Source: a bacterium (GTDB lineage Bacteria > Patescibacteriota > Minisyncoccia > Moranbacterales > DUUL01). From it: a DNA stretch of 64,000 bases. Position numbers and translations under genes: made by a program. Every line of letters begins with the position of its first letter. Positions within the stretch are counted from its first letter, which is position 1. The stretch spans positions 14,367 to 78,366 of the forward strand of contig JABGXP010000002.1 in assembly GCA_018675685.1 (NCBI GenBank), given 5' to 3'. The notes under the pieces are model-generated. The model ran no database searches. It was given only the letters and a program-made list of their open reading frames with translations, and had not been told where the DNA came from. Below are positions 4,309 to 51,302 of the stretch, piece after piece.

Positions 4309-4343
4309 AAAACGCCCCTTGAGTTCAGGGGGCGTTTTTGTTT
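4309..4343 (+). terminator. Rho-independent terminator
   Basis: AAAACGCCCC-TTGAGTTCA-GGGGGCGTTTTTGTTT hairpin plus T-run directly after the stop at 4298. Confidence 0.8.
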
Positions 4344-4460: not shown

Positions 4461-5027
4461 ATGGAAACACTAGGAACGACAACCGAAGCATTCAATTTCG
4501 CTAAACAAGCATTAACCTTTCTAATTCCATTTGCAACAGCCTTTATTCTATTCTTTACCCTTCTGGAGTCCAAGGCCCAAAAAGAATTAATCAGAAAACA
4601 ACAGACATATTCAGAGCTTCCTCTTCTGCGCTTACAATGGTCTGATAAAGATGTAAATGATATTTTTTTAATATTAAAAAAGGATAAGCCAGAAAAGTTC
4701 TATTCCTATACAGATTTAAAGATGATCAACGTTGGAAATGGTCTAGCTCGTGACGTTAAAATTGGAACCTTTAAGATTGGAAAAGAGAAACACAAACTTA
4801 AGAGCGTTGATATCCTTGCTAGCAATGACTCTGTCCAGCTTAGGTATGGCACTAACTTAAAGCAAAAAGGTGTCTTGGATGATGAAAATTATAAGCATAA
4901 ATTTGTAGTTCCTGTTAAGTATAAGGATGTTGAGGGTTCGAGTTGGAGTGTAAAATTTGAACTTAACGTTGATTACAACGATGGTTTTAGAGTAATTGGT
5001 CCGAAAAGATTGGATATTATTGTATAA
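4461..5027 (+). CDS. hypothetical membrane-anchored protein
   Basis: 188-aa ORF with one N-terminal TM (LTFLIPFATAFILFFTLL). No recognisable motif. Confidence 0.45.
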   Translation: METLGTTTEAFNFAKQALTFLIPFATAFILFFTLLESKAQKELIRKQQTYSELPLLRLQWSDKDVNDIFLILKKDKPEKFYSYTDLKMINVGNGLARDVKIGTFKIGKEKHKLKSVDILASNDSVQLRYGTNLKQKGVLDDENYKHKFVVPVKYKDVEGSSWSVKFELNVDYNDGFRVIGPKRLDIIV

Positions 5028-5055
5028 TTTTTGTATTAAAAATAAATAAAAAACA

Positions 5056-5622
5056 ATGAAAAAAAAGAATCTTCGAGATGAAGCGTATTACAAATCGCTA
5101 TCGATGTTCTTGATTGGGACAATCGGACTTTTGCTCATGACATATATCGCCTTTGGACTAGTGATGACTACAATAAAGGCTTATAGATTGATGGACCTTC
5201 AGAAAAATGAAAAAACTATTCCATCTGAAGTAGGCACAGTCCGACGCTATCTCGATCCTTCTAAGGAAGCTGATTTAAAAGGAGAAAAAGTAGCTATCGA
5301 TGTTGTTGTAAAAGAGGTTTTTGGGGAGATAATTTCCCTAAATAACAATATTATGACAGTCGAGACTAATATTTATGGAGATGAAACAAAAAGTGTTAGA
5401 TTAAAACTTGATGAAGAGGGGGTTGGGAGAATTCTCAGGTACGAGGTCAGCGAGAAGGATAATGAGAATGAAGTTGAGTTAAGTTTGGATGATCTAAAGG
5501 AGGGAATGTATGTAGGAGTGAAGCTTCCAGTCGAAGTTTTATTGTCTGAAATTGAAAATGATCTGATTTATGTGGATGATATTATTGTGGACATTGAATA
5601 TGAAGAGGGGACAGAAGAATGA
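5056..5622 (+). CDS. hypothetical membrane-anchored protein with acidic C-terminus
   Basis: 188-aa ORF, N-terminal TM (MFLIGTIGLLLMTYIAFGLVM). No recognisable motif. Confidence 0.45.
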   Translation: MKKKNLRDEAYYKSLSMFLIGTIGLLLMTYIAFGLVMTTIKAYRLMDLQKNEKTIPSEVGTVRRYLDPSKEADLKGEKVAIDVVVKEVFGEIISLNNNIMTVETNIYGDETKSVRLKLDEEGVGRILRYEVSEKDNENEVELSLDDLKEGMYVGVKLPVEVLLSEIENDLIYVDDIIVDIEYEEGTEE

Positions 5623-5644
5623 TCTTCTGTAAATTGTATGTTAC

Positions 5645-7138
5645 ATGTATAAAAAATATATGAAAAATAAAATTAAAAACAATCTTAAGAACGCTTGCCC
5701 CTCGTTGATCTTGTTGGTGTTTTCTTTTGCAATTTTTTCCAGTGCATCAGCTGCACCAGGTGATTGTGGGGGTAATTTTTCGGGTAGTTTTATTTATTCT
5801 GGTAAGCGAGCAAACTCGAGCGACCCATTTACAACAATTGTGCCAGCTGGGTATGACTTTAAAACACACCTTTTAATAACAGCTGAAGGAGAAGATGACC
5901 TTAAAGCAGGTGAGAATGTTGAAATTGTATTAGTGATGGACCGATCAGGTTCCATGGAGGACAAGGAGAGTGGTGTAAAAAAAATTGATGCAGCTAAGGA
6001 CTCTTTAAGTATTGTTGCTGATACCTTTATAACAAGCGCTGATTCAGAAAATCGCTTGGCGTTAGTGACATACAATGCGAACGTAACGCTCGATCAATCT
6101 TTAACTTCAAATTATAATAAAGTTAAGGATGCGATCAATAGTTTTCCTTCCGCAGGACAAACGAATATCAGTGGTGCCCTAATGACCGCATCTAATCATT
6201 TAAAAGCTAATGCTGATAATGATGCACAAAAATTTATTGTGATTGCAACAGATGGAAATCAAAATGTTGGAATGCCAATTAATTTTGGAATTAAAAGTGT
6301 AGGGAGTGACACAACTGTTTTTTCTGTTGGCATTGGAAAGGATGCAGATAGTACTACTTTAAAAAAGATAGCAGAGGAGTCAGGTAATAAAGAGGGTGCG
6401 TATTATGCTTCCAATGTAAGCGATTTAACAGCAATATTTACTGAGATTATTGAAGATATCCTAATTCCTTTTAGACCTAGCAATGTGCAAGCGACTTTTT
6501 ATAGAGAAAATGCCGATAAATTTAGCTTGATCTCTGCTGCTCCAAACTATTCAAGTGTTTCCAATGGCAATATATATTGGAATAATCTGGGATCAATGTT
6601 GAATGGTGTGAATAGAGAATTTGATTTGATTTATAATCAAGCTGGAGGTGTGGGGACTGGAATGCCTATCAATACAGGAGATGTTTTAGTTAACTATGAC
6701 TTATTCGGAGTAACTTGTTCAGAAATTGTTCCGATTGATATAATTACTATCGAAAATGAACTTCAATGTATTGGCGCAATCCCTAATAACGCGAATATGT
6801 GTCTGGGGGATGACACTGGTCTTAGTTCAGATTCTCCACGTAAGCTTGTAGAAGGGTGTTCAACTGTCGATAAATGTGAATATTTTTGTGATACAGATTT
6901 TGAATTGAAAAATGGAAAGTGTATAATTGAAGGAAAATGTGGCTCTGCGGAAACAGATATTTGGTGTCGTGATGCGCCAACAGTTGGTTGGTGTGGCACA
7001 GGCAGTGTTTTAATAGAGGGTCCTAATCCGACTGGGAATAGGTGGGTTTGGTCTTGTTCAGGTATGTTTGGTGGTCCGAGCACAACATGTCGCGCAGTTC
7101 GTGCTTGTGGGGAGGGATGGAGAGAGGTTGGTTTGTAA
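5645..7138 (+). CDS. secreted von Willebrand factor A (MIDAS) domain protein with Cys-rich C-terminal region
   Basis: N-terminal signal-like segment. MIDAS DxSxS motif (VLVMDRSGSM) plus downstream T and D (ATDGNQN). The last ~130 aa contain about 16 Cys. Confidence 0.75.
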   Translation: MYKKYMKNKIKNNLKNACPSLILLVFSFAIFSSASAAPGDCGGNFSGSFIYSGKRANSSDPFTTIVPAGYDFKTHLLITAEGEDDLKAGENVEIVLVMDRSGSMEDKESGVKKIDAAKDSLSIVADTFITSADSENRLALVTYNANVTLDQSLTSNYNKVKDAINSFPSAGQTNISGALMTASNHLKANADNDAQKFIVIATDGNQNVGMPINFGIKSVGSDTTVFSVGIGKDADSTTLKKIAEESGNKEGAYYASNVSDLTAIFTEIIEDILIPFRPSNVQATFYRENADKFSLISAAPNYSSVSNGNIYWNNLGSMLNGVNREFDLIYNQAGGVGTGMPINTGDVLVNYDLFGVTCSEIVPIDIITIENELQCIGAIPNNANMCLGDDTGLSSDSPRKLVEGCSTVDKCEYFCDTDFELKNGKCIIEGKCGSAETDIWCRDAPTVGWCGTGSVLIEGPNPTGNRWVWSCSGMFGGPSTTCRAVRACGEGWREVGL

Positions 7139-7160
7139 GCTTTTTATAAAGATTTGATAT

Positions 7161-7192
7161 AAAAACAGTCTTAAGTGATTAGACTGTTTTTA
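7161..7192 (+). terminator. Rho-independent terminator
   Basis: AAAAACAGTCT-TAAGTGATT-AGACTGTTTTT after the vWA gene. Confidence 0.75.
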
Positions 7193-7216
7193 TACTTTCA
7201 AGAACTTTTTCTTCTC

Positions 7217-7245
7217 TTGAGAAAATTACCTTTCTTGTGTATAAT
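7217..7245 (+). promoter_or_regulatory. sigma70-like promoter (TTGAGA-17nt-TATAAT) for the PilX-like/pilMNO transcript
   Basis: -35 TTGAGA at 7217-7222, 17-nt spacer, -10 TATAAT at 7240-7245. An AAAAGGGG RBS precedes the ATG at 7297. Confidence 0.5.
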
Positions 7246-7296
7246 TAAGAAAGAGATAGAAGATCTGTAGCTACAAAACAAAACCCAGAAAAGGGG

Positions 7297-8763
7297 ATGA
7301 ATAAAAAAACAACAAATAAAAAAACTAGGCGCAATACATCAGGTGGTTTCATTGCGGCATATGCCTTGGTTACTGCAGCAGTTATCACAACATTGTTGAC
7401 GGGTCTTTTGGTTTTTGTCAGTGTTGCTCAGAGAAGAAGCTCTGATGAGATCTCTCGTCAACAAGCCCTGCAATTAGCAGAAAGTGGCGTTTATTTCTAT
7501 AAGTGGTATTTAGCACATAACTTAGATGGTAAGAATGCGCAACAAATTAGAGGTTTTTGGGATTCAGGAACTGCCTATGGATCAACAACTCCATATGAGG
7601 TAGAGGTTAATGATAATGCAGGTATTGCAATGGGTAAATATAGTTTAAGTGTTGCGATTCCAAGTGCTGACTCTACGATTGCAACTGTTGAGTCAACTGG
7701 TTGGACATATAAACATCCAGGAGTTAGAAGGTCTGTGAGAGTTAGGTTTCGAAGAGCTTCTTGGAGTGAATTTGCTGCGCTTGCTAATGATGCAATGCGC
7801 TTCGGTGGCGGAACCAATGTTCAGGGACCAATCCATTCAAATGGAGGCATTCGCTTTGATGGTGTCGCTAACAACCAAGTTTCTTCATCTGTAGTGACTT
7901 ATGTGGACCCCGATAATGGAGTGATACGGCCCGGGGTTTGGACTTCTCAAGGAGATGAGAGCGCAGTATTTTTGGCGGGCAAAAAATTCCCAGTTCCAGC
8001 TATTGATTTTAATGGAGTGACAACTGATTTGGCCTTAATCAAATCAGAAGCCACAGACCACGGTTTATATTTTGGTGGCGACACCTATGAAAAGAATGTT
8101 TGTGGTTGGCAATGGGTTGGTCCACCAATTTGGTGGCAATGGCAGTGCAACACGCAAGAAGAATCTATCGAAGGCTATCACATTACTTTGCGTGTTGATG
8201 ACAAGTTAGAAAAAAGATTGGTTTATACGAGTGGTAGTTCCACTTATAATATCACTAGTGAATCTGCAGCAGAAGTTTTTGATATTCCCGCGAATGGTTT
8301 AATTTTTATCGAAGACAATGCATGGGTTGATGGAACGATAGATACTGCTAGAGTGACTATAGCCTCTGCTAATTTAGCTTCTGATGTAATTGAAACTGAT
8401 ATATATATAAATAATGATATTAGGTACACTCATACCGATGGTCAAGAAGTTATTGGTTTAATCGCAGAGAATAATATCTCAGTTGGTCTCTACTCTGAGA
8501 ATTTTCTTCAAATTGATGCCGCTTTGTTAGCACAGAAAGGTCGCGTGGGAAGGAATTACTACGGTTTTTCTAATTACCGTTGGAGAAATACGATAACTGT
8601 ATATGGTTCAATTGCCACAAATCATAGGTATGGATTTGCATGGACTGATGGAACTGGGTATGCAACCAGAAACTTATTTTTCGACAACAACTTGCTTTAC
8701 ACACCACCTCCATTTTTCCCAACAGGTACTACTTACGAGCTGGATTTGTGGGAGGATTTATAA
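7297..8763 (+). CDS. PilX-like protein (PilX_N-type N-terminus) with large extracellular domain
   Basis: N-terminal GGFIAAYALVTAAVITTLLTGLLVFVSVAQRRSSDEISRQQALQLAESGV matches the PilX N-terminal pattern (TM helix, E/R, ...AxxxAExG). 488 aa, directly upstream of pilM. Confidence 0.5.
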   Translation: MNKKTTNKKTRRNTSGGFIAAYALVTAAVITTLLTGLLVFVSVAQRRSSDEISRQQALQLAESGVYFYKWYLAHNLDGKNAQQIRGFWDSGTAYGSTTPYEVEVNDNAGIAMGKYSLSVAIPSADSTIATVESTGWTYKHPGVRRSVRVRFRRASWSEFAALANDAMRFGGGTNVQGPIHSNGGIRFDGVANNQVSSSVVTYVDPDNGVIRPGVWTSQGDESAVFLAGKKFPVPAIDFNGVTTDLALIKSEATDHGLYFGGDTYEKNVCGWQWVGPPIWWQWQCNTQEESIEGYHITLRVDDKLEKRLVYTSGSSTYNITSESAAEVFDIPANGLIFIEDNAWVDGTIDTARVTIASANLASDVIETDIYINNDIRYTHTDGQEVIGLIAENNISVGLYSENFLQIDAALLAQKGRVGRNYYGFSNYRWRNTITVYGSIATNHRYGFAWTDGTGYATRNLFFDNNLLYTPPPFFPTGTTYELDLWEDL

Positions 8764-8782
8764 ACCGAAACTGAAATAAAAG

Positions 8783-9874
8783 ATGCTAAGCAATTCATTC
8801 AAAAGATATTTTTCATATTTTTCAAAGCCACAGATATTCGCTGTGGATATTAACAATAGTGATTTAAAGATTTTTCAAATAGAACGCAAGAACGACAAGG
8901 ATATTATTCGTGGTTGGAGTAGAAAAATTTTACCTCCCGGGGTAGTTGTTGATTTTGAAATTCAAGAGACTGATAAATTTGTTGCAATCTTAAGAGAAGC
9001 TCTGGGTGAAGTCTCAGGGAAAAAAATCAGAGGTAAGTCAGTTGTTGTTTCTGTGCCAGAGGATAAGGTTTTTTTGAGAGTTATTAAGTTACCCTTAATG
9101 AAAGAGATTGAAGTAGACGAGGCTATTCATTGGGAGTTAGAGTCTCATATCCCAATTTCTGTCGATGAAGTTTATTTTGATTGGCAAATTGTAAAAAGGG
9201 GAGCCAAGGACATGGATATTTTAGTGGCTGCAACACCGAGGAAAATTGTTGACAATCTAATTTTTTCATTCGAAATGGCTGGTTTGACAGTTAGCGCTTT
9301 AGAGGCTGATTCAGTGGCATCCAAAAGAAGTATTTTAGCAGTTGATGACAATGAGGTTACAATGGTTGTTGACATAGGGATTGACGGTACTGCTTATTTT
9401 ATTTACAGAGATGGGTATCCTGTCTTCTCTTCCAGCAGTTCAATTTCGGGGAAATTATTTACAGATGTTGTTTCAAAGGAATTTGGTATCGACCTAAAAA
9501 AAGCAGAGCACTATAAAACAAAAATCGGCCTAGGATCTAATAAGAAAGAAAGAGATGAAGCGCTGAAGATTTACAAACCAATCCTTTCAAACTTAATTCA
9601 GGAAATAAACAAAACAATAACCTTCTATGATGAGAATTTGGCTATTGATGACAAAAGAGTTGAAAAAGTTGTTTTAGTAGGAGGAGGCTCAAATCTAAAA
9701 GGGCTTGTTTCATATGTAGCACTATATCTCAAGAAAGATGTTGCTCAGGGTGATCCGTGGAAAAATTTGCGATTTAAAAAACAAATTCCACCAATTTCAA
9801 AAGAAAAAGCACAAAGTTATATAACTGCGATTGGTTTAGCCTTAAGAGGATGCAAAGATGAATATTTCGATTAA
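8783..9874 (+). CDS. pilM: type IV pilus assembly protein PilM (actin-like ATPase fold), copy 1
   Basis: 363 aa. Typical PilM N-terminus (IFAVDINNSDLKIFQIERK), a second sugar-kinase/Hsp70-like half, and gene order M-N-O. Confidence 0.75.
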   Translation: MLSNSFKRYFSYFSKPQIFAVDINNSDLKIFQIERKNDKDIIRGWSRKILPPGVVVDFEIQETDKFVAILREALGEVSGKKIRGKSVVVSVPEDKVFLRVIKLPLMKEIEVDEAIHWELESHIPISVDEVYFDWQIVKRGAKDMDILVAATPRKIVDNLIFSFEMAGLTVSALEADSVASKRSILAVDDNEVTMVVDIGIDGTAYFIYRDGYPVFSSSSSISGKLFTDVVSKEFGIDLKKAEHYKTKIGLGSNKKERDEALKIYKPILSNLIQEINKTITFYDENLAIDDKRVEKVVLVGGGSNLKGLVSYVALYLKKDVAQGDPWKNLRFKKQIPPISKEKAQSYITAIGLALRGCKDEYFD

Positions 9875-10391
9875 TTTTCTTCCGACGGAAAGAAGAGAAG
9901 AAATTAAAAATTTAAAGTACATAGGAGTTGTTATGCGAGTTGGCGTAATGGCAGTTTTAGCATTGTGTGTTTTTGTTACCTTTCTTGGACTCATTAGATA
10001 CACGATTAATATCGAGAAGGATTTTGTTGAAAGTGAGATTTTGCGTTTTGAAAATAGTAAGGAGTATCAACAAACTAAAGTCGCCCAAGACTCCCTTCGT
10101 GAATATAGTTATAGCGCCAAGACTATTAAAAGTGGGCTTAAGCAAAAAAGGAACTTCACAGGACTTATTTCCCAGATAAGTGAAATGATTCCAGACGGTA
10201 TCATTTTAAATAAACTATCGGTGGATAATAAGAATGTTGTTTTGAGCGGGGTGGCGCTTGAGAGAAAAAGTTTATTAATATTAGAACAGCGATTAATGGA
10301 GGATCAAAGATTTAAAAGCGTTGATTCACCAATTTCAAATTTTGTATCTGAGACAAATGCAGAGTTTTCTTTTAAGATGGAGTTAAAATAA
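9858..10391 (+). CDS. pilN: type IV pilus assembly protein PilN, copy 1
   Basis: 177 aa. N-terminal INFLPTERREE motif then a single TM. Overlaps the pilM stop by 17 nt, suggesting translational coupling. Confidence 0.65.
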   Translation: MNISINFLPTERREEIKNLKYIGVVMRVGVMAVLALCVFVTFLGLIRYTINIEKDFVESEILRFENSKEYQQTKVAQDSLREYSYSAKTIKSGLKQKRNFTGLISQISEMIPDGIILNKLSVDNKNVVLSGVALERKSLLILEQRLMEDQRFKSVDSPISNFVSETNAEFSFKMELK

Positions 10392-10406
10392 TTTTTCGAA
10401 AATTAG

Positions 10407-11063
10407 ATGAAGAAGAACAGTGTTAAAAAAAGTAAGCAAGTTCTCATAATATCAATCTTGATTAGTATCGCCCTAGCTGCTTCTTTGATATTTTTTATAA
10501 TACAACCGATAGTAAAGGGTGTCTATCAAACAAGGGATGTTTTTGAAGAGGATAAGATTATGTTTGATGCAATCAGAAGTGACGCTGCCCAATCTCATGT
10601 TTTCGTTGAGTTGGTTGAAAATCTTGGGAAAGACCAGAGTCTTGTTGAGAATGCATTGATAAAAAAAGAATCAGTGGTGATTTTTATTCAGGACATAGAA
10701 CAGATTACTAGAGATGTTGGAAATGAAATTAGTATATCTCAACTCTCTGTATTAAGAGCAAAAAAAGCTTCCAGTGATGGAACGGAAGAGCAAGAGAATG
10801 CACGTTTGGAGGAATTGGAAAAAGAAAAAAGAAAAGTTCGCCTAGCATTAGAGGTTAGGGGCAACTATAAGCAGTTCTCTGAGTTTCTATACAAACTTGA
10901 AAATATGACATATGTTTTTCAAATTGAATCAATTAGTGTTGGGAACTCCTCAGATAGATTCAGTAGCTCCCTAAGAGCAACAGAGGAAGTGCCAATTGAT
11001 TTTACGATAAGTCAAATTATACTTTCATTCACTCCTAAAAATGATAGCAAAGAAAACAAATGA
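10407..11063 (+). CDS. pilO: PilO-like pilus assembly protein, copy 1
   Basis: 218 aa, single N-terminal TM, coiled-coil, position after pilN. Confidence 0.45.
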   Translation: MKKNSVKKSKQVLIISILISIALAASLIFFIIQPIVKGVYQTRDVFEEDKIMFDAIRSDAAQSHVFVELVENLGKDQSLVENALIKKESVVIFIQDIEQITRDVGNEISISQLSVLRAKKASSDGTEEQENARLEELEKEKRKVRLALEVRGNYKQFSEFLYKLENMTYVFQIESISVGNSSDRFSSSLRATEEVPIDFTISQIILSFTPKNDSKENK

Positions 11064-11572
11064 TCCAGAAAAAAAATATTCTCAAAATAGCCAAAAATAG
11101 CCTATTCAACTTTCTTAGATTCTTAGGAACAAAAACTTGGTTTTTTACTGTTTTGTTTTTTGGGGCAGTATTGGCGGTATCTATTTGGATTTGGTGGCAA
11201 TGTGTTTACCAGCCGAAGCCATCAATGGCTGTGATGGAGAAAATTGAGAGAGAACGAGAGGATTTTGATGGTATGAAAAAAAACACAATGGAAGCCATTA
11301 CTCTTTTGCAGGAGTATCGAAATAATTACAACAATGCTCCTAAGTTTGAAAACCAAAGAGAGCTGTTTATTGACCTTTTAGATGAAAGCGTAATTGAGGA
11401 GATTAATAAAAAAGATGATGTGATTATCAAAAAAGAGGAAAATATTTTGCCAGAAGGGATAGAGGAGCAACAAGAAATTCAAGCAGAAGAAGTGGAAGTA
11501 GAGACTGAAACACCGAGTGATCAAAGTGAAAATAATTCATTGAAGGATGTAATTCTTAATATAGGTAATTAG
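11060..11572 (+). CDS. hypothetical membrane protein with acidic C-terminal tail (pilus operon-associated)
   Basis: 170 aa. ATGA overlap with the upstream gene. One TM (TWFFTVLFFGAVLAVSIWIWW). E-rich C-terminus. Confidence 0.4.
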   Translation: MIQKKNILKIAKNSLFNFLRFLGTKTWFFTVLFFGAVLAVSIWIWWQCVYQPKPSMAVMEKIEREREDFDGMKKNTMEAITLLQEYRNNYNNAPKFENQRELFIDLLDESVIEEINKKDDVIIKKEENILPEGIEEQQEIQAEEVEVETETPSDQSENNSLKDVILNIGN

Positions 11573-11859: not shown

Positions 11860-12921
11860 TTAAATTAAAAATTCAACAACATCGCCATCTTGTACGATAT
11901 AATCCTTGCCTTCCGTTCGTAAAAGTCCAGTCTCTCTTGCTTTCACCTTAGAACCAACTCTCATAAGATCTTCAAATGCAATAATCTCTGCACGAATAAA
12001 TTTTTCTTCGAAATCACCATGAATTGCACGACCAGCTCGGGGGGCAGTGGAATTTTTTGGAATTGTCCAAGCTCTTGTTTCCATTTCTCCAGTTGTGAGA
12101 TATGTCATAAGTCCAAGCATGCCATAACTCTTTGTGATAAGCTCGGAAAGCTCTGACTTCAACTCTAGTTCCTTGATGTCTTCATCAGTGAGCTCCAGAA
12201 TATCTTCCTCTGTTTTGATATCCAATGCGACAAAATTTTCAATTTCTGCGAGGGCATACTTTTTGATTTCAGCTGAGATGTTTTTTGGGTTGCTAGTATT
12301 GAAAACATAAAGAATCGGTTTGGAACTTAGTAGATGGAGGTCTGAAATTAAACTAGCATCTTTTCCTAAACTTGAAATAAAGGAATGAACCTTATCTAAA
12401 TTATTTTCATCTAAGATATCTTTTAGTTTCGAGACAATATTTTTTTGCTTAATAGCATCTTTATCGTTGCTTTTTGCTTGTCGTTCAAGGGCAGAAAGTC
12501 GCTTCTGCACAGTTTCCATATCAGCCAGGATAAGTTCGGTGTTGATAACCTCAATATCCCTCTTAGGATCAATATGGCCGTGCACATGAGTGATGTTTTC
12601 ACTCTCAAAAAGTCTAACAACTTCAACAATCGCATCCACTTCTCGAATGTTATGTAGAAATTTATTTCCAAGTCCTTGACCCTCCGCAGCACCTTTCACA
12701 AGTCCTGCGATATCAACAAATTCTGTTGTGGCATAGAGCAGTTTTTTGGATCCTGAAAGCTTTGAAAGTTCCTCAAGTCGCTTATCTGGAACTTCGACAA
12801 CTCCGATATTTGGTTCAATAGTGCAAAATGGATAATTATTAATGTCCACTTGAATGTTAGTTAGAGCCTTAAACAAGGTTGATTTTCCAATGTTTGGGAG
12901 TCCTACGATTCCAATTTTCAT
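11860..12921 (-). CDS. ychF: ribosome-binding ATPase YchF (Obg-family GTPase with TGS domain)
   Basis: MKIGIVGLPNIGKSTLFKALT G1 motif. C-terminal TGS-like DYIVQDGDVVEFLI. 353 aa. Confidence 0.9.
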   Translation of the reverse strand: MKIGIVGLPNIGKSTLFKALTNIQVDINNYPFCTIEPNIGVVEVPDKRLEELSKLSGSKKLLYATTEFVDIAGLVKGAAEGQGLGNKFLHNIREVDAIVEVVRLFESENITHVHGHIDPKRDIEVINTELILADMETVQKRLSALERQAKSNDKDAIKQKNIVSKLKDILDENNLDKVHSFISSLGKDASLISDLHLLSSKPILYVFNTSNPKNISAEIKKYALAEIENFVALDIKTEEDILELTDEDIKELELKSELSELITKSYGMLGLMTYLTTGEMETRAWTIPKNSTAPRAGRAIHGDFEEKFIRAEIIAFEDLMRVGSKVKARETGLLRTEGKDYIVQDGDVVEFLI

Positions 12922-13065
12922 ATTAAAGGGTAAAATTATTTAAAATGTCTGTAGCTATCATTGCGTGTCTTGTGGGAAATGTCAAATATGGTATAATAAT
13001 TCGAAGTTTAGCGGTATTTGTATTCAATACAAGTAATGGAAACGTACTTCAAAGGAGGTCTTGAG

Positions 13066-13170
13066 ATGACAGAATCAATAGACAGAAAAAGGATCCCAAT
13101 AAAGTTTTATCAGGCAGTGCCTGTTTTTATTTACAAACTTGTATTTATAGGTGTGATATACTTGCATTAA
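13066..13170 (+). CDS. putative 34-aa hydrophobic small peptide (MTESIDRKRIPIKFYQAVPVFIYKLVFIGVIYLH)
   Basis: Strong SD AAAGGAGG 7 nt upstream of the ATG at 13066; stop TAA at 13168-13170. Not in the ORF track because it is under 60 aa. Confidence 0.25.
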   Translation: MTESIDRKRIPIKFYQAVPVFIYKLVFIGVIYLH

Positions 13171-13194
13171 GAGGTTAATTTTTTAAAGAATAAT

Positions 13195-13995
13195 ATGGAG
13201 GAGAGAAAGGAATTTTTAAGGAAAATTGTTCGTGAGGCAGGGAGTATCGTTTTGGAAAAGTTTGAGAACTCAGCAATCGAATATACGAAAGATGATAAAT
13301 TGGATCTAGTTACTGATGCTGACTTAGCATCCAATAATTTTATTGTGAGGAAAATCAAAAAAACTTTTCCTAACGATGGAATTATTTCAGAAGAATTAGA
13401 TAATGAAGAATGTGATGGGAGATATACATGGGTGATTGATCCGCTTGATGGAACAATTAATTTTGCTACCGGGATCCCAATTTTTGTAGTAATGATCGCC
13501 CTAATGAAGGAAGGGGAGGTCCAGATGTCCGCGATCTTTGATCCTGTATATAACAAATTTGCTTTTGCAAAGAAAGGCGAAGGTGCTTTTGTGAATGATG
13601 TTAAGATTCAATGTTCCAAAGAGGAGAAAATGACAAGTTCACGTGGAATAATGAGTTCCGTTGTTTTGGCTCAAGAAATTTGCTTACGAGAAAAAGTGAT
13701 TAAAAAAGGTGAAGCTGTGAATACTCGTATGGGGGTAAACGCCTTTGGTTGTGCTGGTTTTAATGCAATATGTGTGGCAGAGGGAAAAAGGGAGTGGATT
13801 GTAGGCTTCAATACAAAACTGTGGGATATTGCGCCTTCTGTGCTATTGTTAGCAGAAGCTGGATGTAAAGTTACAAATCATGCCGGAGAAGAGTGGCGAC
13901 CTGGGATGGCGATGGTTGCAGCAAATAAGGAATTACACAAGGAGCTTGTGGAGTTAACAAAAGGATGCGATTCTTTAAGTCACTCAGTACATTGA
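13195..13995 (+). CDS. inositol monophosphatase family protein (IMPase/SuhB-like)
   Basis: IMPase motifs: DLVTDADLASN, EE, and WVIDPLDGTINFATGIP. Confidence 0.85.
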   Translation: MEERKEFLRKIVREAGSIVLEKFENSAIEYTKDDKLDLVTDADLASNNFIVRKIKKTFPNDGIISEELDNEECDGRYTWVIDPLDGTINFATGIPIFVVMIALMKEGEVQMSAIFDPVYNKFAFAKKGEGAFVNDVKIQCSKEEKMTSSRGIMSSVVLAQEICLREKVIKKGEAVNTRMGVNAFGCAGFNAICVAEGKREWIVGFNTKLWDIAPSVLLLAEAGCKVTNHAGEEWRPGMAMVAANKELHKELVELTKGCDSLSHSVH

Positions 13996-14058
13996 GTTAT
14001 CTTCTTTAAGGTGATAGCATTGTTTAGTTGATTTGAGTAAAAGTAAAACACTTGGAAT

Positions 14059-15297
14059 ATGAAAGTTAAAAAACCAGAATTGCTTGCACCAGCAGGAAAC
14101 TTAGCAAAAATGAATACTGCTTTTACATTTGGAGCAGATGCGGTATATTTTGGTATTCCAAATTTCTCGCTTAGAGTAAGAATAAATCAATTTGATGAAA
14201 AGTCGATTCTAGAGGCCGCCAAGTATTGTCGGAAAAAAAGAAAAAAATTCTATATAACTTTAAATATCTATGCCCATAATGAGCATTTGAAAAAACTTCC
14301 TAAGCATTTAAAATTTGTTAAAGAAATCGCACCTGATGCCATTATTATTTCAGATCCAGGTGTTTTACAAGTTGTGAAAAAAGAATTGCCGGATACACCA
14401 ATTCATATTTCAACACAAGCAAATGTGACAAATGTGGAAGCTGTTAAGTTTTGGCAAGCACAGGGAGCAGAGCGCATCATCCTAGCAAGAGAAGTCACAC
14501 TTAAGGAGGTTAGAGAGATTAAAAAAGAGGTTCCAGGAATGGAGTTGGAATGCTTCGTACATGGTGCGATGTGCATGTCATATAGTGGTCGCTGTATTCT
14601 TTCGAAATGGATGACAAATAGAAGTGCTAATCTCGGAGATTGCAGCCAACCTTGTCGTTGGAAATATAAAACAGTAAGCAAAAGAATCGAAGTTGTTGAC
14701 GATAAAGATCGCTTTAATATAAAAATAGAAGAAGATCAGCACGGAACATATCTTTTTAATAGTTACGACATGTGTTTGATCGAGCATGTAGCTGAACTGA
14801 TTGAGGCTGGCATTGACTCAGTGAAAATTGAAGGACGAGCAAAGAGTGTTTTTTATGTGGGAGTTGTTTCTCGCGCATATAGAAAAGTTATCAATGCTTA
14901 CTATGAGGGTGAAAATGAGTATCAAAAAGAGATTGAACTTGCAAAAAAAGAATTGTATAAACTTGCCAACAGAGGTTACGGAAAAGGTTTTTTGCTAGGA
15001 GAGGATCCTGATCATTTGTTTAACGACTCAGCGGTTGCTGCTAGTTGGGAATTTGCTGGAATTTGTGAAGACCAAGAAAGTAGCAATATGAGAAGGGTAT
15101 TCATACATAACCGCTTGAGAACAGAGGATGAAATTGAAATCATCACTCCCAACGAAGTAATTAGCGTGAAAGCTTTGAATATAAAAAATAATAAAAAGGA
15201 GGAGATTGACTCAGCTCATGGAGGGAAAAATGAATTTTTTCTTGTTGAATTTAACAAAGAAATCAAGGGACCTTTTTTGCTTAGAGTGAAAATATAA
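14059..15297 (+). CDS. peptidase U32 family protein (collagenase-like PrtC/YhbU/RlhA family)
   Basis: N-terminus KPELLAPAGNLAKMNTAFTFGADAVYFG, C-x-x-C-rich core and C-terminal domain, 412 aa. Confidence 0.85.
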   Translation: MKVKKPELLAPAGNLAKMNTAFTFGADAVYFGIPNFSLRVRINQFDEKSILEAAKYCRKKRKKFYITLNIYAHNEHLKKLPKHLKFVKEIAPDAIIISDPGVLQVVKKELPDTPIHISTQANVTNVEAVKFWQAQGAERIILAREVTLKEVREIKKEVPGMELECFVHGAMCMSYSGRCILSKWMTNRSANLGDCSQPCRWKYKTVSKRIEVVDDKDRFNIKIEEDQHGTYLFNSYDMCLIEHVAELIEAGIDSVKIEGRAKSVFYVGVVSRAYRKVINAYYEGENEYQKEIELAKKELYKLANRGYGKGFLLGEDPDHLFNDSAVAASWEFAGICEDQESSNMRRVFIHNRLRTEDEIEIITPNEVISVKALNIKNNKKEEIDSAHGGKNEFFLVEFNKEIKGPFLLRVKI

Positions 15298-15415
15298 AGA
15301 AGTCTAATAGAAGCATTTTTTGTTGGTGTTTGCTGACATTTTTCGGTTGACCAAAAGGAAAAACATTGCTAGGATTAGGAACTTATAAAGAATTAAAAGA
15401 GTAAGAAAAAAGGCT

Positions 15416-16162
15416 ATGTATTTCACTCACTTGCAAAAGGCTAAGATCATTCTAGTTTTAAATTTTATAGTCTTATGCTGCATTATTATATTGACTCCAT
15501 TTTTTATTAAAAATGGAACTGTTTTGCTTTCAGAAGAAGCCGTGGAGGGCGTGTTTCTAACAATAGAACTCTTTGCTCTTATCGTTGTTTTTCGTCATTA
15601 TGATTCACAGAACAAAAGATACGAAGATGAAACAACGACATTGAATACAAAATTAGAGAAAAAGGAAAAAGAATTATTGAATGCATTGGAATATCTAGGT
15701 AAAGTCAACGTTCAAGTCTCAATGATTAAATCAATTTTCGAGAAAATGAAAGTTCCTTCTACAAAGAGTCAACTAATCGAAGTATATTCAGAGCTCTTGC
15801 GAATTGTTTGTGGAATGACCGATGAATCATACGCTACGCTTCGAATTGTAAACTTGCAAAATGGTAGAATGCTGAGCGAACACGTCGAGAGAGTCAGTAG
15901 CACTAAAGGAAAGGAGCTCAAAAATATAATTGGGAATAAAGAGTTAGTAGAGAGGTTTATAAAAAGAGATAAGAATAATAAGGGCGAATTTGCGACTTTT
16001 TTCTCTGATGTGGAAAATTTTTATGTAAAAGCTTTTATTACCATCCCAAACTCTAAAAGGAAAAAATTTCAGCAAGAGGAGCGTGCTTTTCTGGAGGCTG
16101 TAGCTAATCAATGTGAAATTGTTTTTTTATTATTTAATTCAAGATATTACAAAAATAAATAA
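15416..16162 (+). CDS. hypothetical membrane protein
   Basis: 248 aa, two N-terminal TMs, coiled-coil. No recognisable catalytic motif. Confidence 0.45.
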   Translation: MYFTHLQKAKIILVLNFIVLCCIIILTPFFIKNGTVLLSEEAVEGVFLTIELFALIVVFRHYDSQNKRYEDETTTLNTKLEKKEKELLNALEYLGKVNVQVSMIKSIFEKMKVPSTKSQLIEVYSELLRIVCGMTDESYATLRIVNLQNGRMLSEHVERVSSTKGKELKNIIGNKELVERFIKRDKNNKGEFATFFSDVENFYVKAFITIPNSKRKKFQQEERAFLEAVANQCEIVFLLFNSRYYKNK

Positions 16163-16241
16163 GCTAGTTATTTAAGGGTTGATTAAAATAGTTAAAAATA
16201 TTAAGCTTAATCTATGGAATATTAATAATAATAAAAAATAG

Positions 16242-17039
16242 ATGAAAGGTATAATCCTTGCCGGTGGAACTGCAACAAGGTTGTTTCCACTTACGGCGAC
16301 TACAAGCAAACAACTTTTGCCAGTTTATGACAGGCAAATGATTTTTTTTCCGCTGAACACTTTGATTAAGGCTGGAATAAAAGATATTCTGATGATTGTC
16401 GCACCTGATCATTCAGGACAGTATTTGAATTTATTGGGTACAATTTTTGAGAAACATGGAATTAGAATTGAATTTAAAGTTCAGAAATTACCAAAAGGCT
16501 TAGCTGATGCATTCATAGTTGGGGAAAATTTCATTGGAACTGATAATGTAGCTATGATTTTAGGAGATAATATTTTTGAAAATGATTTTTCAAAAGAGAT
16601 TAAAGGTTTTAAGTCAGGAGGACACATCTTCGCTGTAAAGGTTCCAGATCCAGAGCGATATGGAGTTGTGAGGTTTGATGATGCAGGCAAGGTTCTTCAG
16701 ATTGAAGAAAAGCCGAAGGAATGGATTAGCGACTATGCAATACCAGGTCTTTATATTTATGATAATAGGTGTTGTGAGGCTGCTAAAAAGGTAATTCCTT
16801 CAGAGAGAGGAGAAATTGAAATCACTGAGCTTCATGACTTTTATTTTAAAAAAGAAGAATTAACCGTTAGCTCTTTCGAGGGTGCTTATCTAGACGCGGG
16901 AACATTTGATTCCTTACTAGAGGCAGGAAAAATTGTTAAAGAAAGAGGGATAAGTAGAAAATTTGATCCAATTATCAACGAGGCTATCGAAGAGTTCAAT
17001 GAAGAACTCAAAGTTATCGCCAGAAAAAGATTGGCTTAG
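16242..17039 (+). CDS. rmlA: glucose-1-phosphate thymidylyltransferase-like sugar nucleotidyltransferase
   Basis: MKGIILAGGTATRLFPLT...SKQLLPVYDRQMIFFPL, the canonical RmlA/RfbA N-terminus. Confidence 0.75.
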   Translation: MKGIILAGGTATRLFPLTATTSKQLLPVYDRQMIFFPLNTLIKAGIKDILMIVAPDHSGQYLNLLGTIFEKHGIRIEFKVQKLPKGLADAFIVGENFIGTDNVAMILGDNIFENDFSKEIKGFKSGGHIFAVKVPDPERYGVVRFDDAGKVLQIEEKPKEWISDYAIPGLYIYDNRCCEAAKKVIPSERGEIEITELHDFYFKKEELTVSSFEGAYLDAGTFDSLLEAGKIVKERGISRKFDPIINEAIEEFNEELKVIARKRLA

Positions 17040-19195: not shown

Positions 19196-19575
19196 TAGTT
19201 TCGTTTGCAATGCAATTGCTTTGACTTGTTCAAAGAGGAAAGTCTGGACACCATTGTTCTTTTAGAACAATATGGATAATCGGTAATGCCGATCGGTTTA
19301 TTAGTAATAATAAACAAGGGAAAGTGCCGCAGAGACAATACTAACTAACGCTTTGCGTTAGCCAAAGGTGAAAAGTGCATTGATGTAATCATTCCGATGA
19401 TTGCTACAAAGCTCGCTTGTTGGCAACAACAGGTTGTGGTAAACCCTATTTGGTGCAAGGCCGTGTTTCGAGAAATCGGAAAGTGCCGCTAAAGTTGCTT
19501 GGAAACATTCAACGTAGATAAATAATTGCAACTCCTTGGAGTAACAGAATCCAGCTTATTTGTTTGTGAAACTAA
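19196..19575 (+). ncRNA. rnpB: RNase P RNA (bacterial type, rnpB)
   Basis: Universal P4 motifs AGAGGAAAGTCTGGAC at 19233-19248 and ACAGAATCCAGCTTA near the 3' end. GGTAATGCCG and GGAAAGTGCCGC(A/T)(G/A)AG elements resemble the P10-P12 region. 5' AGTTTC pairs with 3' GAAACT as P1. Flanked by a strong promoter and a terminator. About 380 nt. Confidence 0.75.
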
Positions 19576-19581
19576 ATCAAA

Positions 19582-19608
19582 AGCGGACCGCAAGGTCTGT
19601 TTTTTTGT
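19582..19608 (+). terminator. Rho-independent terminator after rnpB
   Basis: GCGGACC-GCAA-GGTCTG followed by TTTTTTT. Confidence 0.7.
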
Positions 19609-19670
19609 TGGATTGTCCCTTGAGCGATTTGTTTGATATAATTGAGTCACTTATTTGTAAGTATGCAAAA

Positions 19671-20204
19671 ATGAAAGTGAGGAAGAACTTTCTGATAAGT
19701 TTTACAGTGGTATTACTTTTTTTTATTGGCGCCACATCCCTACTTTTTACTTGGAAACAAAAAGAACAACTAAGGGGAGAGAAGATAATTAAGACTACAG
19801 AGGTTTATCCTGTTAGAATGTATTTCTTTTATTCTAATACTTGCCCTCATTGTCGAGATGAGAATAAATTTCTTTCGAAATTAGAAAAAGAAATACCTTT
19901 TTTGGTAATAGAGAGATTCGAAATATCAAATAGTAGCGATGAGATAACCAGATATGTTTTCTCTAAGCTCACCAAGAAGCATTCAACTGAGGGAGCAATT
20001 CCTTTAACAATAATCGGGGAAAATGTTACATTGGGATTTAATGATGATGAAAATTTAGGAGCTGATTTTAAAAATCAAATAAAAGAGTGTGCTTTAAATG
20101 GCTGTGACAGTTGGTTAGATAATGAATATGACATTGATAACACATTGACTCAGAGAAAAATTGACATATCTTCCAAACAATTTGAATTTATATTCAAGAA
20201 GTAA
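19671..20204 (+). CDS. membrane-anchored thioredoxin-fold protein (CxxC; DsbA/thiol-disulfide oxidoreductase-like)
   Basis: Start re-assigned to MKVRKNF..., downstream of rnpB and its terminator. N-terminal TM. CPHC active-site motif (SNTCPHCRDE). Confidence 0.6.
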   Translation: MKVRKNFLISFTVVLLFFIGATSLLFTWKQKEQLRGEKIIKTTEVYPVRMYFFYSNTCPHCRDENKFLSKLEKEIPFLVIERFEISNSSDEITRYVFSKLTKKHSTEGAIPLTIIGENVTLGFNDDENLGADFKNQIKECALNGCDSWLDNEYDIDNTLTQRKIDISSKQFEFIFKK

Positions 20205-38777: not shown

Positions 38778-39923
38778 ATGAGTAGTGAACAAACCTCTGT
38801 TTTTCACAAAATGAAAGATGGTTTATTCAGCGGCTTGTTTGGTGGGAATGGCAATGTCTCAGTGGGTGTTGATGTTGGTAGCGCTAGTATAAAAGTTGTT
38901 GTTCTAGAGAGAGCAGGAGAAGCAATCCATCTCAAAAACTATGCTATCGCCACAAGCAAACAAGAAATAATAAAACCAGGAACATCTGGCGTTATTTCTG
39001 AATCAGCAAGTGAGTTGATTAGAAAGACTATAAAAGAGGCGGAAGTATCAAAGAAATCGGTCCAAGCAGCGGTGCCTAGTTTCTCTTCTTTGATAACAGC
39101 AATAGAAATCCCAAGAGCAGCAGAAAAAGATATCGATGAAATAATTCAAAATGAAGCCCCAAAATATATTCCAGTTCAATTAGCGGATGTGGTTTATGGG
39201 TGGCAATTGATTGATGAAGGGTCTAAGGATGACGAAGAGGAGAAAGAAGATGCAATTCCAGGAGTTCAAAGGGATGGAAAGATACATATATTGCTAGTCG
39301 CTATTATGCGTGAGATTAGTGCTAAGTATGAAGCAGTGTTTTCGAAAGCTGGTTTGAAAATTGAAGCTTTAGAGATCGATGCTTTTTCTTTAACAAGAGC
39401 GTTAGTTGGTAGCAATACAAGTCCTCATTTAATTTTAGATATTGGACACAAGGTGTGTAATATTGTCGCTGTTTCAAATGGAAATGTACTATTGAATAGA
39501 ACGATAGACATTGCCGGTGATAGAATAACAAAGACAATTGCTAGGAGTTTGAATATTGACACTCAAAGAGCTGAACAAATCAAGCATAAAAATGGAATGA
39601 ATGCTGGTGAAGCTCAGGGCGGAACCGAGATGATTGGCCAAATCATGGATGCTGTTGTTGCGGAAATTAAAAAAACCAACAAGGCTATCAAGAAGACATA
39701 TGTTGGGATAGAAATAAGTGAAATCGTATTAACCGGTGGTGGATCGAAATTGGTTGGAATGGTTGACTATCTAAGTAAGGAGCTTGGCTTAAAAACTAGA
39801 ATAGGGGAGCCTTTCGCAGCTATTAACTATCCAGAGAGTATCCAATCTGTTATTGACGAACATGGTTCGGAGTTAGTAATTGCAGTTGGACTTGCATTAA
39901 ATGCTTTCGAGGATAAAAAATAA
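38778..39923 (+). CDS. pilM: type IV pilus assembly protein PilM, copy 2
   Basis: VGVDVGSASIKVVVLERAGEAIHLKNYAI actin-like N-terminal fold. 381 aa. First gene of the M-N-O-B-(RR)-T-C order. Confidence 0.8.
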   Translation: MSSEQTSVFHKMKDGLFSGLFGGNGNVSVGVDVGSASIKVVVLERAGEAIHLKNYAIATSKQEIIKPGTSGVISESASELIRKTIKEAEVSKKSVQAAVPSFSSLITAIEIPRAAEKDIDEIIQNEAPKYIPVQLADVVYGWQLIDEGSKDDEEEKEDAIPGVQRDGKIHILLVAIMREISAKYEAVFSKAGLKIEALEIDAFSLTRALVGSNTSPHLILDIGHKVCNIVAVSNGNVLLNRTIDIAGDRITKTIARSLNIDTQRAEQIKHKNGMNAGEAQGGTEMIGQIMDAVVAEIKKTNKAIKKTYVGIEISEIVLTGGGSKLVGMVDYLSKELGLKTRIGEPFAAINYPESIQSVIDEHGSELVIAVGLALNAFEDKK

Positions 39924-39948
39924 TCGTAAGAAGTAAAAATAAAAAAAA

Positions 39949-40494
39949 ATGGCAAAAATAAACCTCAAGTCAAATGAGATGTCTGGTAGAAGACCAAACA
40001 GTCAAGGAAGTAACAAATCTTTGGTTTTTGGAATTGTATCGTTGGCTGTGGGCTTAGCGGTTTTTGGAATGGTTCGTTATTTGACGATCCAGACTGAAAA
40101 TCAAAACGAAGAAGCTAGAGCTGAAGTTGTTCAATTAGAAAACAACATGAACACAGATGATGTGAAAAAACTCTATGACTTCCAAGATCGTTTAATTGAG
40201 ATTGAGGGTCTTATGGACAACAAAGTTTCACAAATGGAGCTTTTGGAGAAAATTGAAAGACATACCTTGCCAGCAACAAGATTCACAAAATTAGAGTTTG
40301 AAAGGCAATCCAGTAAGACAGAAATTGATGCTACAGTTGTGGTTGAAAACCACGTTGAGTTAGCAAAACAGATCGAAGCCTTTAGTTTGATTGGGAGCGA
40401 AGTAGAAAATGTGTTTTTGAGTTCCAGTAAGATTAATAGGGAGGGCTCTGGCATTGAAGGTAATGTCATCTTCTATTATAAAGATATAAAATAA
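39949..40494 (+). CDS. pilN: PilN-like pilus assembly protein, copy 2
   Basis: 181 aa, single TM after a short cytoplasmic N-terminus, coiled-coil. Position after pilM. Confidence 0.6.
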   Translation: MAKINLKSNEMSGRRPNSQGSNKSLVFGIVSLAVGLAVFGMVRYLTIQTENQNEEARAEVVQLENNMNTDDVKKLYDFQDRLIEIEGLMDNKVSQMELLEKIERHTLPATRFTKLEFERQSSKTEIDATVVVENHVELAKQIEAFSLIGSEVENVFLSSSKINREGSGIEGNVIFYYKDIK

Positions 40495-40532
40495 AGAGAT
40501 ATTTATTTTAAATAAAAAATAAAAAATAAAAA

Positions 40533-41312
40533 ATGAAATTAAAAATTCTTTTCTTTCCAATTGCTCTTTTTGTAGCTTTCATGATAACAATCTTTTTTAC
40601 AAAGCCAGAGTGGGATATTTATCAAGAAAAGCAAGAAGAATTAACTAAATTAACAATGGAACTGGACGACTTAAAGAGCGGAAATGCCTCCATTGAAAAT
40701 GCCACAAAAAAATTCAACAGCCTAACTCCAGATCAAGAAAGTTTGGTTTTAAATGCTATTCCAAGCGAAGAGAAGAACGATGACTTCTTGGCTGAGGTGC
40801 ATAAAAGTGCTGAAACAAGTGGTGTTTTTATTATATCCACAAAAATAAAGAACCCTCAAATCAATAGAGCAAATAGGAATATTCTTCCTGGTTCTCTCGC
40901 AAGTATGACTCCAACCAGGACTGGTGTTACTGCAGAAGTTTCGGTGATGGGTTCATATATTGATATTGCTGAATTTGTTAAAGAAGTCGATTCCCACAAT
41001 AGATTCACCACACCAAGAGAACTTTTGATTATTGAACAGCAAGTAATAGCTGATGTTGCAGAGGAGGAGATTTCCGTAGAAAATGGTTCAATGATAAAAT
41101 GTGAACTAACCTTTGATTTCTTTAGTAAGGAGAAAAACGAAAAGTTACAAATTGCAAATTTGATTAGAGCGAATGACCCAGTTATTAAGAGCTTGTTGAG
41201 TGGCCAATTTAAAACAGGGATTATTGAGGATTATCAAAACTCTATTACCAGGGAAGTATTTAGACCTGTTAGTGCTGGAAGTGCAGGCAAGGAAGACATT
41301 TTCTCTAGATAA
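40533..41312 (+). CDS. pilO: PilO-like pilus assembly protein, copy 2
   Basis: 259 aa, N-terminal TM, coiled-coil (EKQEELTKLTMELDDLK). Position between pilN and pilB. Confidence 0.5.
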   Translation: MKLKILFFPIALFVAFMITIFFTKPEWDIYQEKQEELTKLTMELDDLKSGNASIENATKKFNSLTPDQESLVLNAIPSEEKNDDFLAEVHKSAETSGVFIISTKIKNPQINRANRNILPGSLASMTPTRTGVTAEVSVMGSYIDIAEFVKEVDSHNRFTTPRELLIIEQQVIADVAEEEISVENGSMIKCELTFDFFSKEKNEKLQIANLIRANDPVIKSLLSGQFKTGIIEDYQNSITREVFRPVSAGSAGKEDIFSR

Positions 41313-41357
41313 TTTTGAAGCTAAGTAAGAGGTGATTAAATAAAAAACAAAAGATAA

Positions 41358-43064: not shown

Positions 43065-43075
43065 TAATAAACACA

Positions 43076-43453
43076 ATGAGTGAGAAGGCAAAAAAAATAC
43101 TTGTGATTGAGGATGATAAGTTTATTTCAGAAGTGTATATCGCAAGGCTCTCGAAAGAAGGTTTTGAAACAGTGCTTGTTGGTGACGGAGAAGCTGCTAT
43201 AAAAAAAGCTAAAGAAGAGACACCAGACTTGATTCTGTTGGATATTTTTATACCTAAAATCGGAGGAATGGATGTCCTGAGGGTTTTGAAAGAGAAAGAT
43301 GAAACAAGGAATATTCCAGTTGTCATGTTAACTAATGCCACGGAAGAAGAATATATCGATAATGCGATGGGGATGGGAGCTGTGGATTATCTAGTTAAAT
43401 CAAACTACACTCCAGAGGAGATTGTCCATAAAGTGCTTGAACATTGCAAATAA
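43076..43453 (+). CDS. single-domain response regulator (CheY-like receiver)
   Basis: KILVIEDD...DLILLDIFIPKIGG (phospho-acceptor Asp)...VVMLTNATEE...K. 125 aa with no output domain. Confidence 0.8.
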   Translation: MSEKAKKILVIEDDKFISEVYIARLSKEGFETVLVGDGEAAIKKAKEETPDLILLDIFIPKIGGMDVLRVLKEKDETRNIPVVMLTNATEEEYIDNAMGMGAVDYLVKSNYTPEEIVHKVLEHCK

Positions 43454-43495
43454 AGATGCAGGGAATGATTAAAACAAAAATTTAAGACTATAAAA

Positions 43496-44575: not shown

Positions 44576-44611
44576 TTTTATTAATAAAGCAAAATTCATT
44601 AAATTTTAAAA

Positions 44612-45820: not shown

Positions 45821-45841
45821 TTTTCCCAAAAAAAGGTTTTG

Positions 45842-45850: not shown

Positions 45851-45927
45851 AGCTAGGTAAACATCAAAAAGAAAAAGTGATTTAATTTGTATAACTCAAA
45901 AATGAAAATAGAAAGGCGGGTGAAAAA

Positions 45928-51300: not shown

Positions 51301-51302
51301 CA

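Follow-up and report, generated by a model that had tools for sequence, protein, structure and literature searches.

The window analysed here is a stretch of 64,000 nucleotides (nt) of contig JABGXP010000002.1, from a marine member of the Moraniibacteriota (Patescibacteria). Two of its open reading frames (ORFs), both on the plus strand, are the subject of this text. The first (5645–7138) encodes a secreted protein of 497 amino acids (aa) with a von Willebrand factor A (vWA) domain, the second (7297–8763) a protein of 488 aa whose gene directly precedes the genes pilM, pilN and pilO (pilMNO). In a preliminary description of this DNA, the two were taken to form an adhesin pair of the PilY1/PilX type at the tip of a type IV pilus. 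The interval is instead the junction of two independent units, A (4461–7138) and B (7297–11572), which contain the vWA gene and the 488-aa gene, respectively. The 488-aa protein is probably a capping pilin of the GspK/PilX type that resembles ComZ of Thermus thermophilus, while the vWA protein is best read as a separate surface adhesin.

Between the two genes lies a terminator-like hairpin on the plus strand (7158–7194), which closes the vWA unit. It has a core stem of 14 bp, a 9-nt loop and a U-rich 3′ side, with a folding energy of -17.6 kcal/mol and a z-score of -3.5. It is followed by a sigma-70-like promoter (7217–7245, plus strand), TTGAGA-17-TATAAT, which agrees with the consensus at 11 of 12 positions and is the best match of this kind between positions 3000 and 12000. 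In the 80%-identity relative L011 both hexamers are kept while the remaining spacer has diverged, and a different hairpin is found at the equivalent place. An Rfam scan of this intergenic region returned nothing. The two ORFs, the hairpin and the near-consensus promoter are thus all present as they were first described. Because of the hairpin and the conserved promoter between them, the vWA gene and the 488-aa gene are predicted to be separate transcription units.

The 488-aa protein belongs to a large family. More than 2,190 matches were found among clusters at 90% identity; at 50% identity there were 1,819 clusters with E ≤ 1e-3, 333 of which had E ≤ 1e-30, and relatives are present in at least 522 species genomes. 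The relatives of the window are Candidatus Moraniibacteriota; for distant family members the cluster look-up gave no taxonomic names. Some members have already been named "PilX N-terminal domain-containing" by NCBI. The homologue search yielded no cluster of at least 90% identity to the window's protein (best 85%), although JGI and ENA contigs contain the same layout with a 488-aa gene at this position; the missing cluster probably reflects how far the word-index candidate list reaches and not a true absence. Among 39 diverse members the mean column identity is 49%, and many Gly, Arg, His, Asp and Asn residues are invariant in the family alignment.

The N-terminus of the family consists of a basic leader, a Gly that is present in 38 of 38 members (Gly17 in the window's protein) and a hydrophobic helix. 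Lys or Arg stands at -1 in 20 of 38 members. At position +5, Tyr or Phe is found in 37 of 38 members and Glu in none. The lack of Glu5 is a mark of capping pilins of the GspK/PilX type. As in these pilins, the helix is followed by a conserved Q-A-L/F-x-x-A-E-x-G motif. The NCBIfam GspK model (NF037980) matches the N-terminus of the 488-aa protein with E 1.2e-3, which is under its cut-off, and at E ≤ 0.01 the Pfam model PilX_N (PF14341) is matched by 8 of the 39 members, the best of them with 1.3e-7. What the family has in common with the core minor pilins of the GspK/PilX type is a basic leader, a Gly, a helix without Glu5 and weak but consistent profile matches, and its role would be capping or priming. 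A difference is found in the accessory domain, which in GspK is an alpha-helical insert and in the 488-aa protein a beta-solenoid that follows four strands of the pilin sheet.

This organization was taken from an AlphaFold2 model with a predicted local distance difference test score (pLDDT) of 87.9 and a predicted template modelling score (pTM) of 0.78. In this model, a helix (residues 16–76) is followed by four strands (100–153), a beta-solenoid of some 310 residues (161 to about 470) and a conserved last strand (480–487). When the model was compared with the PDB using Foldseek, both chains of ComZ (6QVI) came out on top (E 1e-10 and 3e-10, probability 1.0) and were the sole strong matches; the next were solenoids of ice-binding proteins. 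In ComZ, the pilin domain is GspK-like and carries, ahead of its last strand, an inserted solenoid that resembles an ice-binding protein; position 5 is Gly instead of Glu (Salleh et al., 2019; PMC6561018). Both PilA2, the adjacent minor pilin, and DNA are bound by ComZ, and its location at the tip was argued on steric grounds (PMC6561018). In the model of the 488-aa protein, the succession of four strands, solenoid and last strand would fit such an insertion. The two proteins are alike in size (about 500 residues), and both combine a hydrophobic N-terminal helix, in which Glu5 is missing, with a pilin domain of the GspK kind and a large solenoid. They differ in their gene context, as the ComZ gene lies among minor-pilin genes, between pilA3 and pilA4, whereas the 488-aa family gene precedes pilMNO. 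The hosts differ as well, since the 488-aa family belongs to Patescibacteria, which, unlike the host of ComZ, do not have an outer-membrane secretin. A side feature of the 488-aa protein is a Trp-rich insertion at residues 269–284, CGWQWVGPPIWWQWQC, flanked by the only two Cys of the protein. Because about one quarter of the 39 aligned members are without it, this stretch appears to be a variable surface loop on a highly conserved solenoid.

Gene context ties the family to pilus genes, as had been proposed for the window's gene. In a sample of 80 species genomes with a relative of the 488-aa protein (71 to 78 evaluable, depending on the gene), pilM lies at most 400 nt downstream of the family gene in 74 of 78 genomes. 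A canonical prepilin is encoded directly 5′ in 70 of 78, a large prepilin is present in 67 of 73 and pilC in 64 of 71. The operon is most often ordered pilB, pilC, a large prepilin (430–600 aa), a prepilin (205–335 aa, typically about 211 aa), the ComZ-like gene, pilM, pilN and pilO, and the same operon surrounds a family member that scores merely E 1e-69. The prepilin and ComZ-like coding regions often overlap or abut. Both upstream prepilins bear leaders of the G↓FTLIE type (the arrow marks the cleavage site) with Glu5; the set therefore resembles a three-pilin tip or priming module, of which the member without Glu5 would be the cap.

Several further observations were made on these operons. 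The large prepilin (L006, L007, L017–L090, L091) has a CarboxypepD_reg-like domain, and often a histidine kinase gene and one for a response regulator come before the operon. A distant family member of 916 aa (L092, 7001–9751) follows pilB, pilC and two prepilin genes and has no pilM behind it; recJ and comEC (Pfam Competence) are found 3–6 kb downstream (12837–16542). In three relatives (L003, 12717–13676; L004, 7543–8493; L012, 4071–5015), a secreted NosD/Beta_helix protein of about 315 aa is encoded directly 5′ of the ComZ-like gene, at the position that the vWA gene has in the window.

In the clade of the window (488-aa protein at least 56% identical), the family gene alone stays with pilMNO, and this clade has lost the first four genes of the canonical operon (pilB, pilC and the two prepilin genes) at this locus. 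In the window, the 488-aa gene is followed on the plus strand by pilM copy 1 (8783–9874; Pfam PilM_2 E 1.4e-46, 159.5 bits, above the cut-off; TIGR01175 E 1.8e-47) and by pilN (9858–10391; Pfam PilN E 9.5e-7, 29.2 bits, above the cut-off), which overlaps pilM by 17 nt. The next gene (10407–11063) encodes a PilO/GspM-like protein with weak matches to T2SSM_b (E 7.6e-4), PilO (E 3.1e-3) and GspM (E 4e-4). Its PilO (18.1 bits) and T2SSM_b (19.8 bits) scores are slightly under the Pfam cut-offs, and its place after pilN is conserved among relatives. The last gene of the operon (11060–11572) encodes a membrane protein of 170 aa for which the Pfam and NCBIfam searches gave no family match; it is kept after pilO in the close relatives L011–L013, L016 and L021. 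A tRNA-Arg gene follows at 11688.

A second, complete pilus cluster is located at 38778–52299. It contains pilM, a PilO-like gene, pilB, a response regulator gene, pilT, pilC, three major-type pilin genes, pilD (47390–48211), three minor pilin genes (48208–49940) and the genes for a PilX_N protein of 280 aa, for two proteins rich in Cys and for one further pilin. The 64 kb hold two pilM-pilN-pilO sets (8783–11063 and 38778–40494), the PilM proteins of which are 24% identical, and one copy each of pilB, pilT, pilC and pilD. This arrangement resembles the situation in Nanosynbacter lyticus TM7x (Saccharibacteria), which has two type IV pilus systems with two pilMNO sets (PMC11623550). In TM7x, two large minor pilins, PilX1 and PilX2, have been proposed as tip proteins; no PilD signal is predicted for either, and both carry an accessory domain (PMC11623550). 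Compared by description only, this domain is a beta-jelly roll in one and a seven-bladed propeller in the other, while that of the 488-aa family is a solenoid.

Altogether, we consider the 488-aa protein to be a ComZ-like capping pilin of the GspK/PilX type, with a probability of about 0.6. It would enter the PilMNO/PilC platform first, prime assembly together with partner minor pilins and then cap the filament, with the solenoid exposed as a receptor for either DNA, as proposed for ComZ, or a conserved surface ligand. The position at the cap is suggested because so bulky a solenoid could not fit in the shaft; the same argument, that the protein is too bulky for the shaft, led to ComZ being proposed at the tip.

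A number of points weigh against this assignment. The likeness of the N-terminus to PilX, pointed out in the preliminary description, holds at the level of the family and through the Gly, the missing Glu5 and the GspK match, but the 488-aa protein itself does not reach the PilX_N threshold (E 0.48, 10.9 bits, cut-off 25.5). The global TM-score to ComZ is low (0.28–0.30, root-mean-square deviation 16 Å), probably because of the long helix and the orientation of the domains. When the profile of the 488-aa family was searched against the PDB, no ComZ chain was retrieved even at E ≤ 10 and only chance-level matches were seen. As no sequence relation to ComZ is detectable, the likeness is architectural and comes from the predicted structure; the link to ComZ is one of predicted fold only. 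The composition of the solenoid is acidic (isoelectric point (pI) 4.5, compared to 9.6 for the region of the pilin sheet), which gives no hint of DNA binding, although ComZ does not have basic patches either (PMC6561018). Lastly, in the clade of the window the operon has no homologues of the two partner prepilins, and neither has the 64-kb window; to form a tip complex, the protein would thus depend on pilins of the second cluster or of other loci in the genome.

The retention of the 488-aa gene with pilMNO, and not with pilins, in this clade also fits another explanation. The protein could be an uncleaved, membrane-anchored accessory of the PilMNO platform, the beta-helix of which spans or remodels the cell wall at the pilus exit of a secretin-less cell, either as a conduit or by binding or cleaving glycans. 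Right-handed beta-helices are common in glycan-active enzymes. Moreover, the conservation of the family, with its 49% mean column identity and many invariant residues, is unusual for an adhesin, and the gene for a secreted NosD/Beta_helix protein directly upstream in L003, L004 and L012 points in the same direction. Nevertheless, we regard such a platform role as unlikely. The best structural match is a pilin, ComZ, and includes the pilin-like domain; the hydrophobic helix is preceded by an invariant Gly, as at a prepilin cleavage site; and in the 70 of 78 genomes mentioned above the gene directly follows two bona fide prepilin genes, which is the arrangement of minor-pilin tip sets.

The protein encoded upstream of the junction, at 5645–7138 in unit A, is of a different kind. 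It matches Pfam VWA (PF00092) with E 4.7e-19 (69.7 bits, cut-off 23.8) and VWA_2 with E 3.9e-18, over residues 94–265. The metal-ion-dependent adhesion site (MIDAS) for which it had been singled out is canonical; D99, S101, S103, T173 and D203 are invariant in an alignment of 16 vWA sequences. By inspection, the N-terminus, MYKKYMKNKIKNNLKNACPSLILLVFSFAIFSSASAA followed by PGD after the cleavage site, is a Sec-type signal peptide with a basic n-region, the hydrophobic stretch LILLVFSFAIF and the cleavage site SASAA↓P. No class III (prepilin) leader of the form G↓F-x-x-x-E was seen there, unlike in the modular vWA pilin of the Streptococcus sanguinis PilB type. About 16 Cys had been counted in the C-terminal region. 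This region is indeed Cys-rich, with 13 Cys in residues 358–488, but the protein has 15 in total; of the other two, C18 is in the signal peptide and C41 near the N-terminus. A Saanich Inlet metagenome contig matches the window over the compared region; its gene layout is the same and its vWA protein identical.

In the AlphaFold2 model of this protein (pLDDT 82.6), the vWA domain lies within a beta-sandwich, and a disulfide-rich tail comes after it. The top Foldseek matches were a Catenulispora vWA protein (4fx5), PitA, SpaC, Mfa5, integrin beta3 and ArnB. By fold and by profile, the domain matches the vWA domains of extracellular adhesins in general, RrgA, GBS104 and the LapA vWA domain being further examples. 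These adhesins (RrgA, SpaC, PitA, GBS104, Mfa5, the LapA vWA domain and the I-like/hybrid part of integrin beta) likewise have a MIDAS-bearing vWA domain in a beta-sandwich, with Foldseek E-values from 1e-11 to 1e-17. In contrast to them, the window's protein carries neither a pilin module nor an LPXTG motif or any other recognised anchor, and has a unique tail with 13 Cys and a small membrane partner. Its overall layout recalls an integrin beta chain, as sandwich strands (45–80) precede the vWA domain, small disulfide-rich modules follow it and the extended beta3 integrin is matched with E 5e-16. Within the tail, the stretch C411-x3-C415-x10-C426 has the appearance of an epidermal growth factor (EGF)-like module. 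The tail alone, used as query, returned no homologues, which is due to the word index; a W-x-W-x-C-x-G motif of the tail, searched as a regular expression over the collected loci, occurs solely in vWA orthologues.

The vWA family is narrow, with 16 homologues in 5.8 billion clusters. Its constant partner is the gene at 5056–5622 (plus strand), which ends 22 nt before the start of the vWA gene and encodes a 188-aa protein with an N-terminal membrane helix. A homologue was found directly 5′ of the vWA gene in every case examined (L004 with E 1e-21, L008 with E 6e-9 and L010 by alignment); these homologues have 176–189 aa, one N-terminal membrane helix and 26–28% identity. Unit A opens with another gene for a 188-aa protein (4461–5027, plus strand), a single-pass membrane protein without a match in the Pfam and NCBIfam searches. 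A 73% identical copy is present at the equivalent position in L011, and a terminator-like hairpin (4315–4331) lies upstream of the gene. That the two 188-aa proteins are paralogues was rejected on comparison.

In more distant relatives the surroundings of the vWA gene change. In the 47%-identity relative (L003/L004), five genes lie between the vWA gene and the pilus operon, within about 6 kb; they encode a cupin, a lytic transglycosylase, two proteins of unknown function and a NosD-like beta-helix protein. At 36–38% identity, the vWA gene adjoins DUF4012, Wzz and glycosyltransferase genes, i.e., genes for envelope polysaccharides. No pilus genes are present there in the 10 kb upstream (both cases), in the 10 kb downstream (L010) or in the less than 1 kb downstream (L008/L009).

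These results bear on the proposal of a split PilY1/PilX-type tip adhesin, in which the pilus cap would be the docking site of the vWA protein, which provides MIDAS-dependent adhesion without a beta-propeller. PilY1 of Pseudomonas and Myxococcus is a large protein involved in pilus tip and priming functions, with an N-terminal vWA-like region. The vWA and 488-aa genes are adjacent in the window and in its closest relatives, including L011, and within about 6 kb in the 47%-identity vWA relative. Besides, vWA domains do exist on pilus tips, as illustrated by PitA, SpaC, RrgA and GBS104 of sortase pili and by the type V tip protein Mfa5, all found by Foldseek. Against this stand the hairpin and the conserved promoter between the genes, and the distribution of the vWA gene, which is found in the flank of 1 of 76 evaluable genomes with the 488-aa family and is missing in the other 75. 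The distant vWA homologues lie away from pilus genes, and the constant partner of the vWA gene is another gene. The flanking ATP-binding cassette (ABC) transporter genes are collinear in L003 as well, so that ordinary genome collinearity accounts for the closeness of the vWA and 488-aa genes. Furthermore, PilY1 is not a pilin but one protein that has a beta-propeller at its C-terminus and its gene in the minor-pilin operon, whereas here the vWA domain belongs to a separate protein, which is Sec-secreted, has no prepilin leader and is encoded in another operon. Neither Pfam nor the AlphaFold2 models revealed a beta-propeller in the vWA protein or the 488-aa protein, and no PilY1-related entry was found among the Foldseek and profile matches of the vWA protein. 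An adhesin pair of this type is therefore improbable.

The vWA protein is better read as a lineage-specific, pilus-independent adhesin, held at the cell surface by its membrane partner. It would capture an acidic residue of its ligand in a metal-ion-dependent manner. What speaks against its independence is that, in all vWA-carrying relatives with a 488-aa protein at least 65% identical, the vWA gene is adjacent to or near the pilus operon; a functional link between vWA and pilus that is specific to this clade may exist. An intracellular or regulatory vWA protein like ArnB or BatA, which the ArnB Foldseek matches (8s05 and 5a8j, E 1e-14 to 1e-16) and an NCBIfam BatA match far under the cut-off (E 1.6e-9) might suggest, was rejected as highly improbable, as the Sec-type signal peptide and the 13 conserved Cys of the tail indicate an exported, disulfide-bonded protein, the cytoplasmic proteins of the window contain at most 1.3% Cys and transmembrane segments of the BatA type are absent.

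A parallel had also been drawn between the two genes and a module in the second pilus cluster (49964–51821), both being viewed as a PilX-like protein accompanied by Cys-rich secreted proteins. In that module, the C-terminal end of the 280-aa PilX_N protein is formed by a Cys-rich domain of some 110 aa. The two proteins that come next (160 and 172 aa) are homologous to this domain over their entire exported part (BLASTP E 1e-15 to 1e-19), with the shared motif C.SGY.E..DFCI ... ARLC...EW..AC ... CC.N. The ARL-x-T/C-x-x-EW stretch presumably recalls the fold of the formylglycine-generating enzyme (FGE) or of C-type lectins. The parallel breaks down, as the 488-aa protein has 2 Cys and the tail of the vWA protein, considered as a relative of this domain, was rejected because there is no homology. 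The Cys content is 3–6% in the pilins and other Cys-rich exported proteins of the window, compared to the low values of its cytoplasmic proteins; Cys-richness is a general trait of exported proteins here. Elsewhere in the window, the bacterial class A RNase P RNA is found at 19200–19574 (142.8 bits), overlapping the start of a listed ORF with a TTG start codon (19560–20204).

Type IV pili are nearly universal in Patescibacteria and are thought to serve host attachment and DNA uptake. To our knowledge, pilus tip proteins in this group are known only from a few Saccharibacteria, and ComZ is the only pilus-tip DNA receptor with a solved structure. Modular tip pilins as such are already known; on a solenoid or ComZ-like pilin in Patescibacteria no paper was found in the literature. 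The analysis removes a false lead, in that the vWA protein should not be annotated as a pilus component, and it provides, with the 488-aa family, a concrete candidate for the end at which the Moraniibacteriota pilus would act as a receptor. A more far-reaching and doubtful proposal is that the solenoid cap pilin, conserved in Moraniibacteriota and in neighbouring Patescibacteria, has the function of ComZ and would, at the tip of a competence pilus, be the extracellular receptor for DNA. If so, the strong conservation of the family would reflect a universal ligand, DNA, and not host-specific adhesion, and through this protein these ultrasmall bacteria, which are auxotrophic for nucleotides, would capture DNA from the environment or from their hosts.

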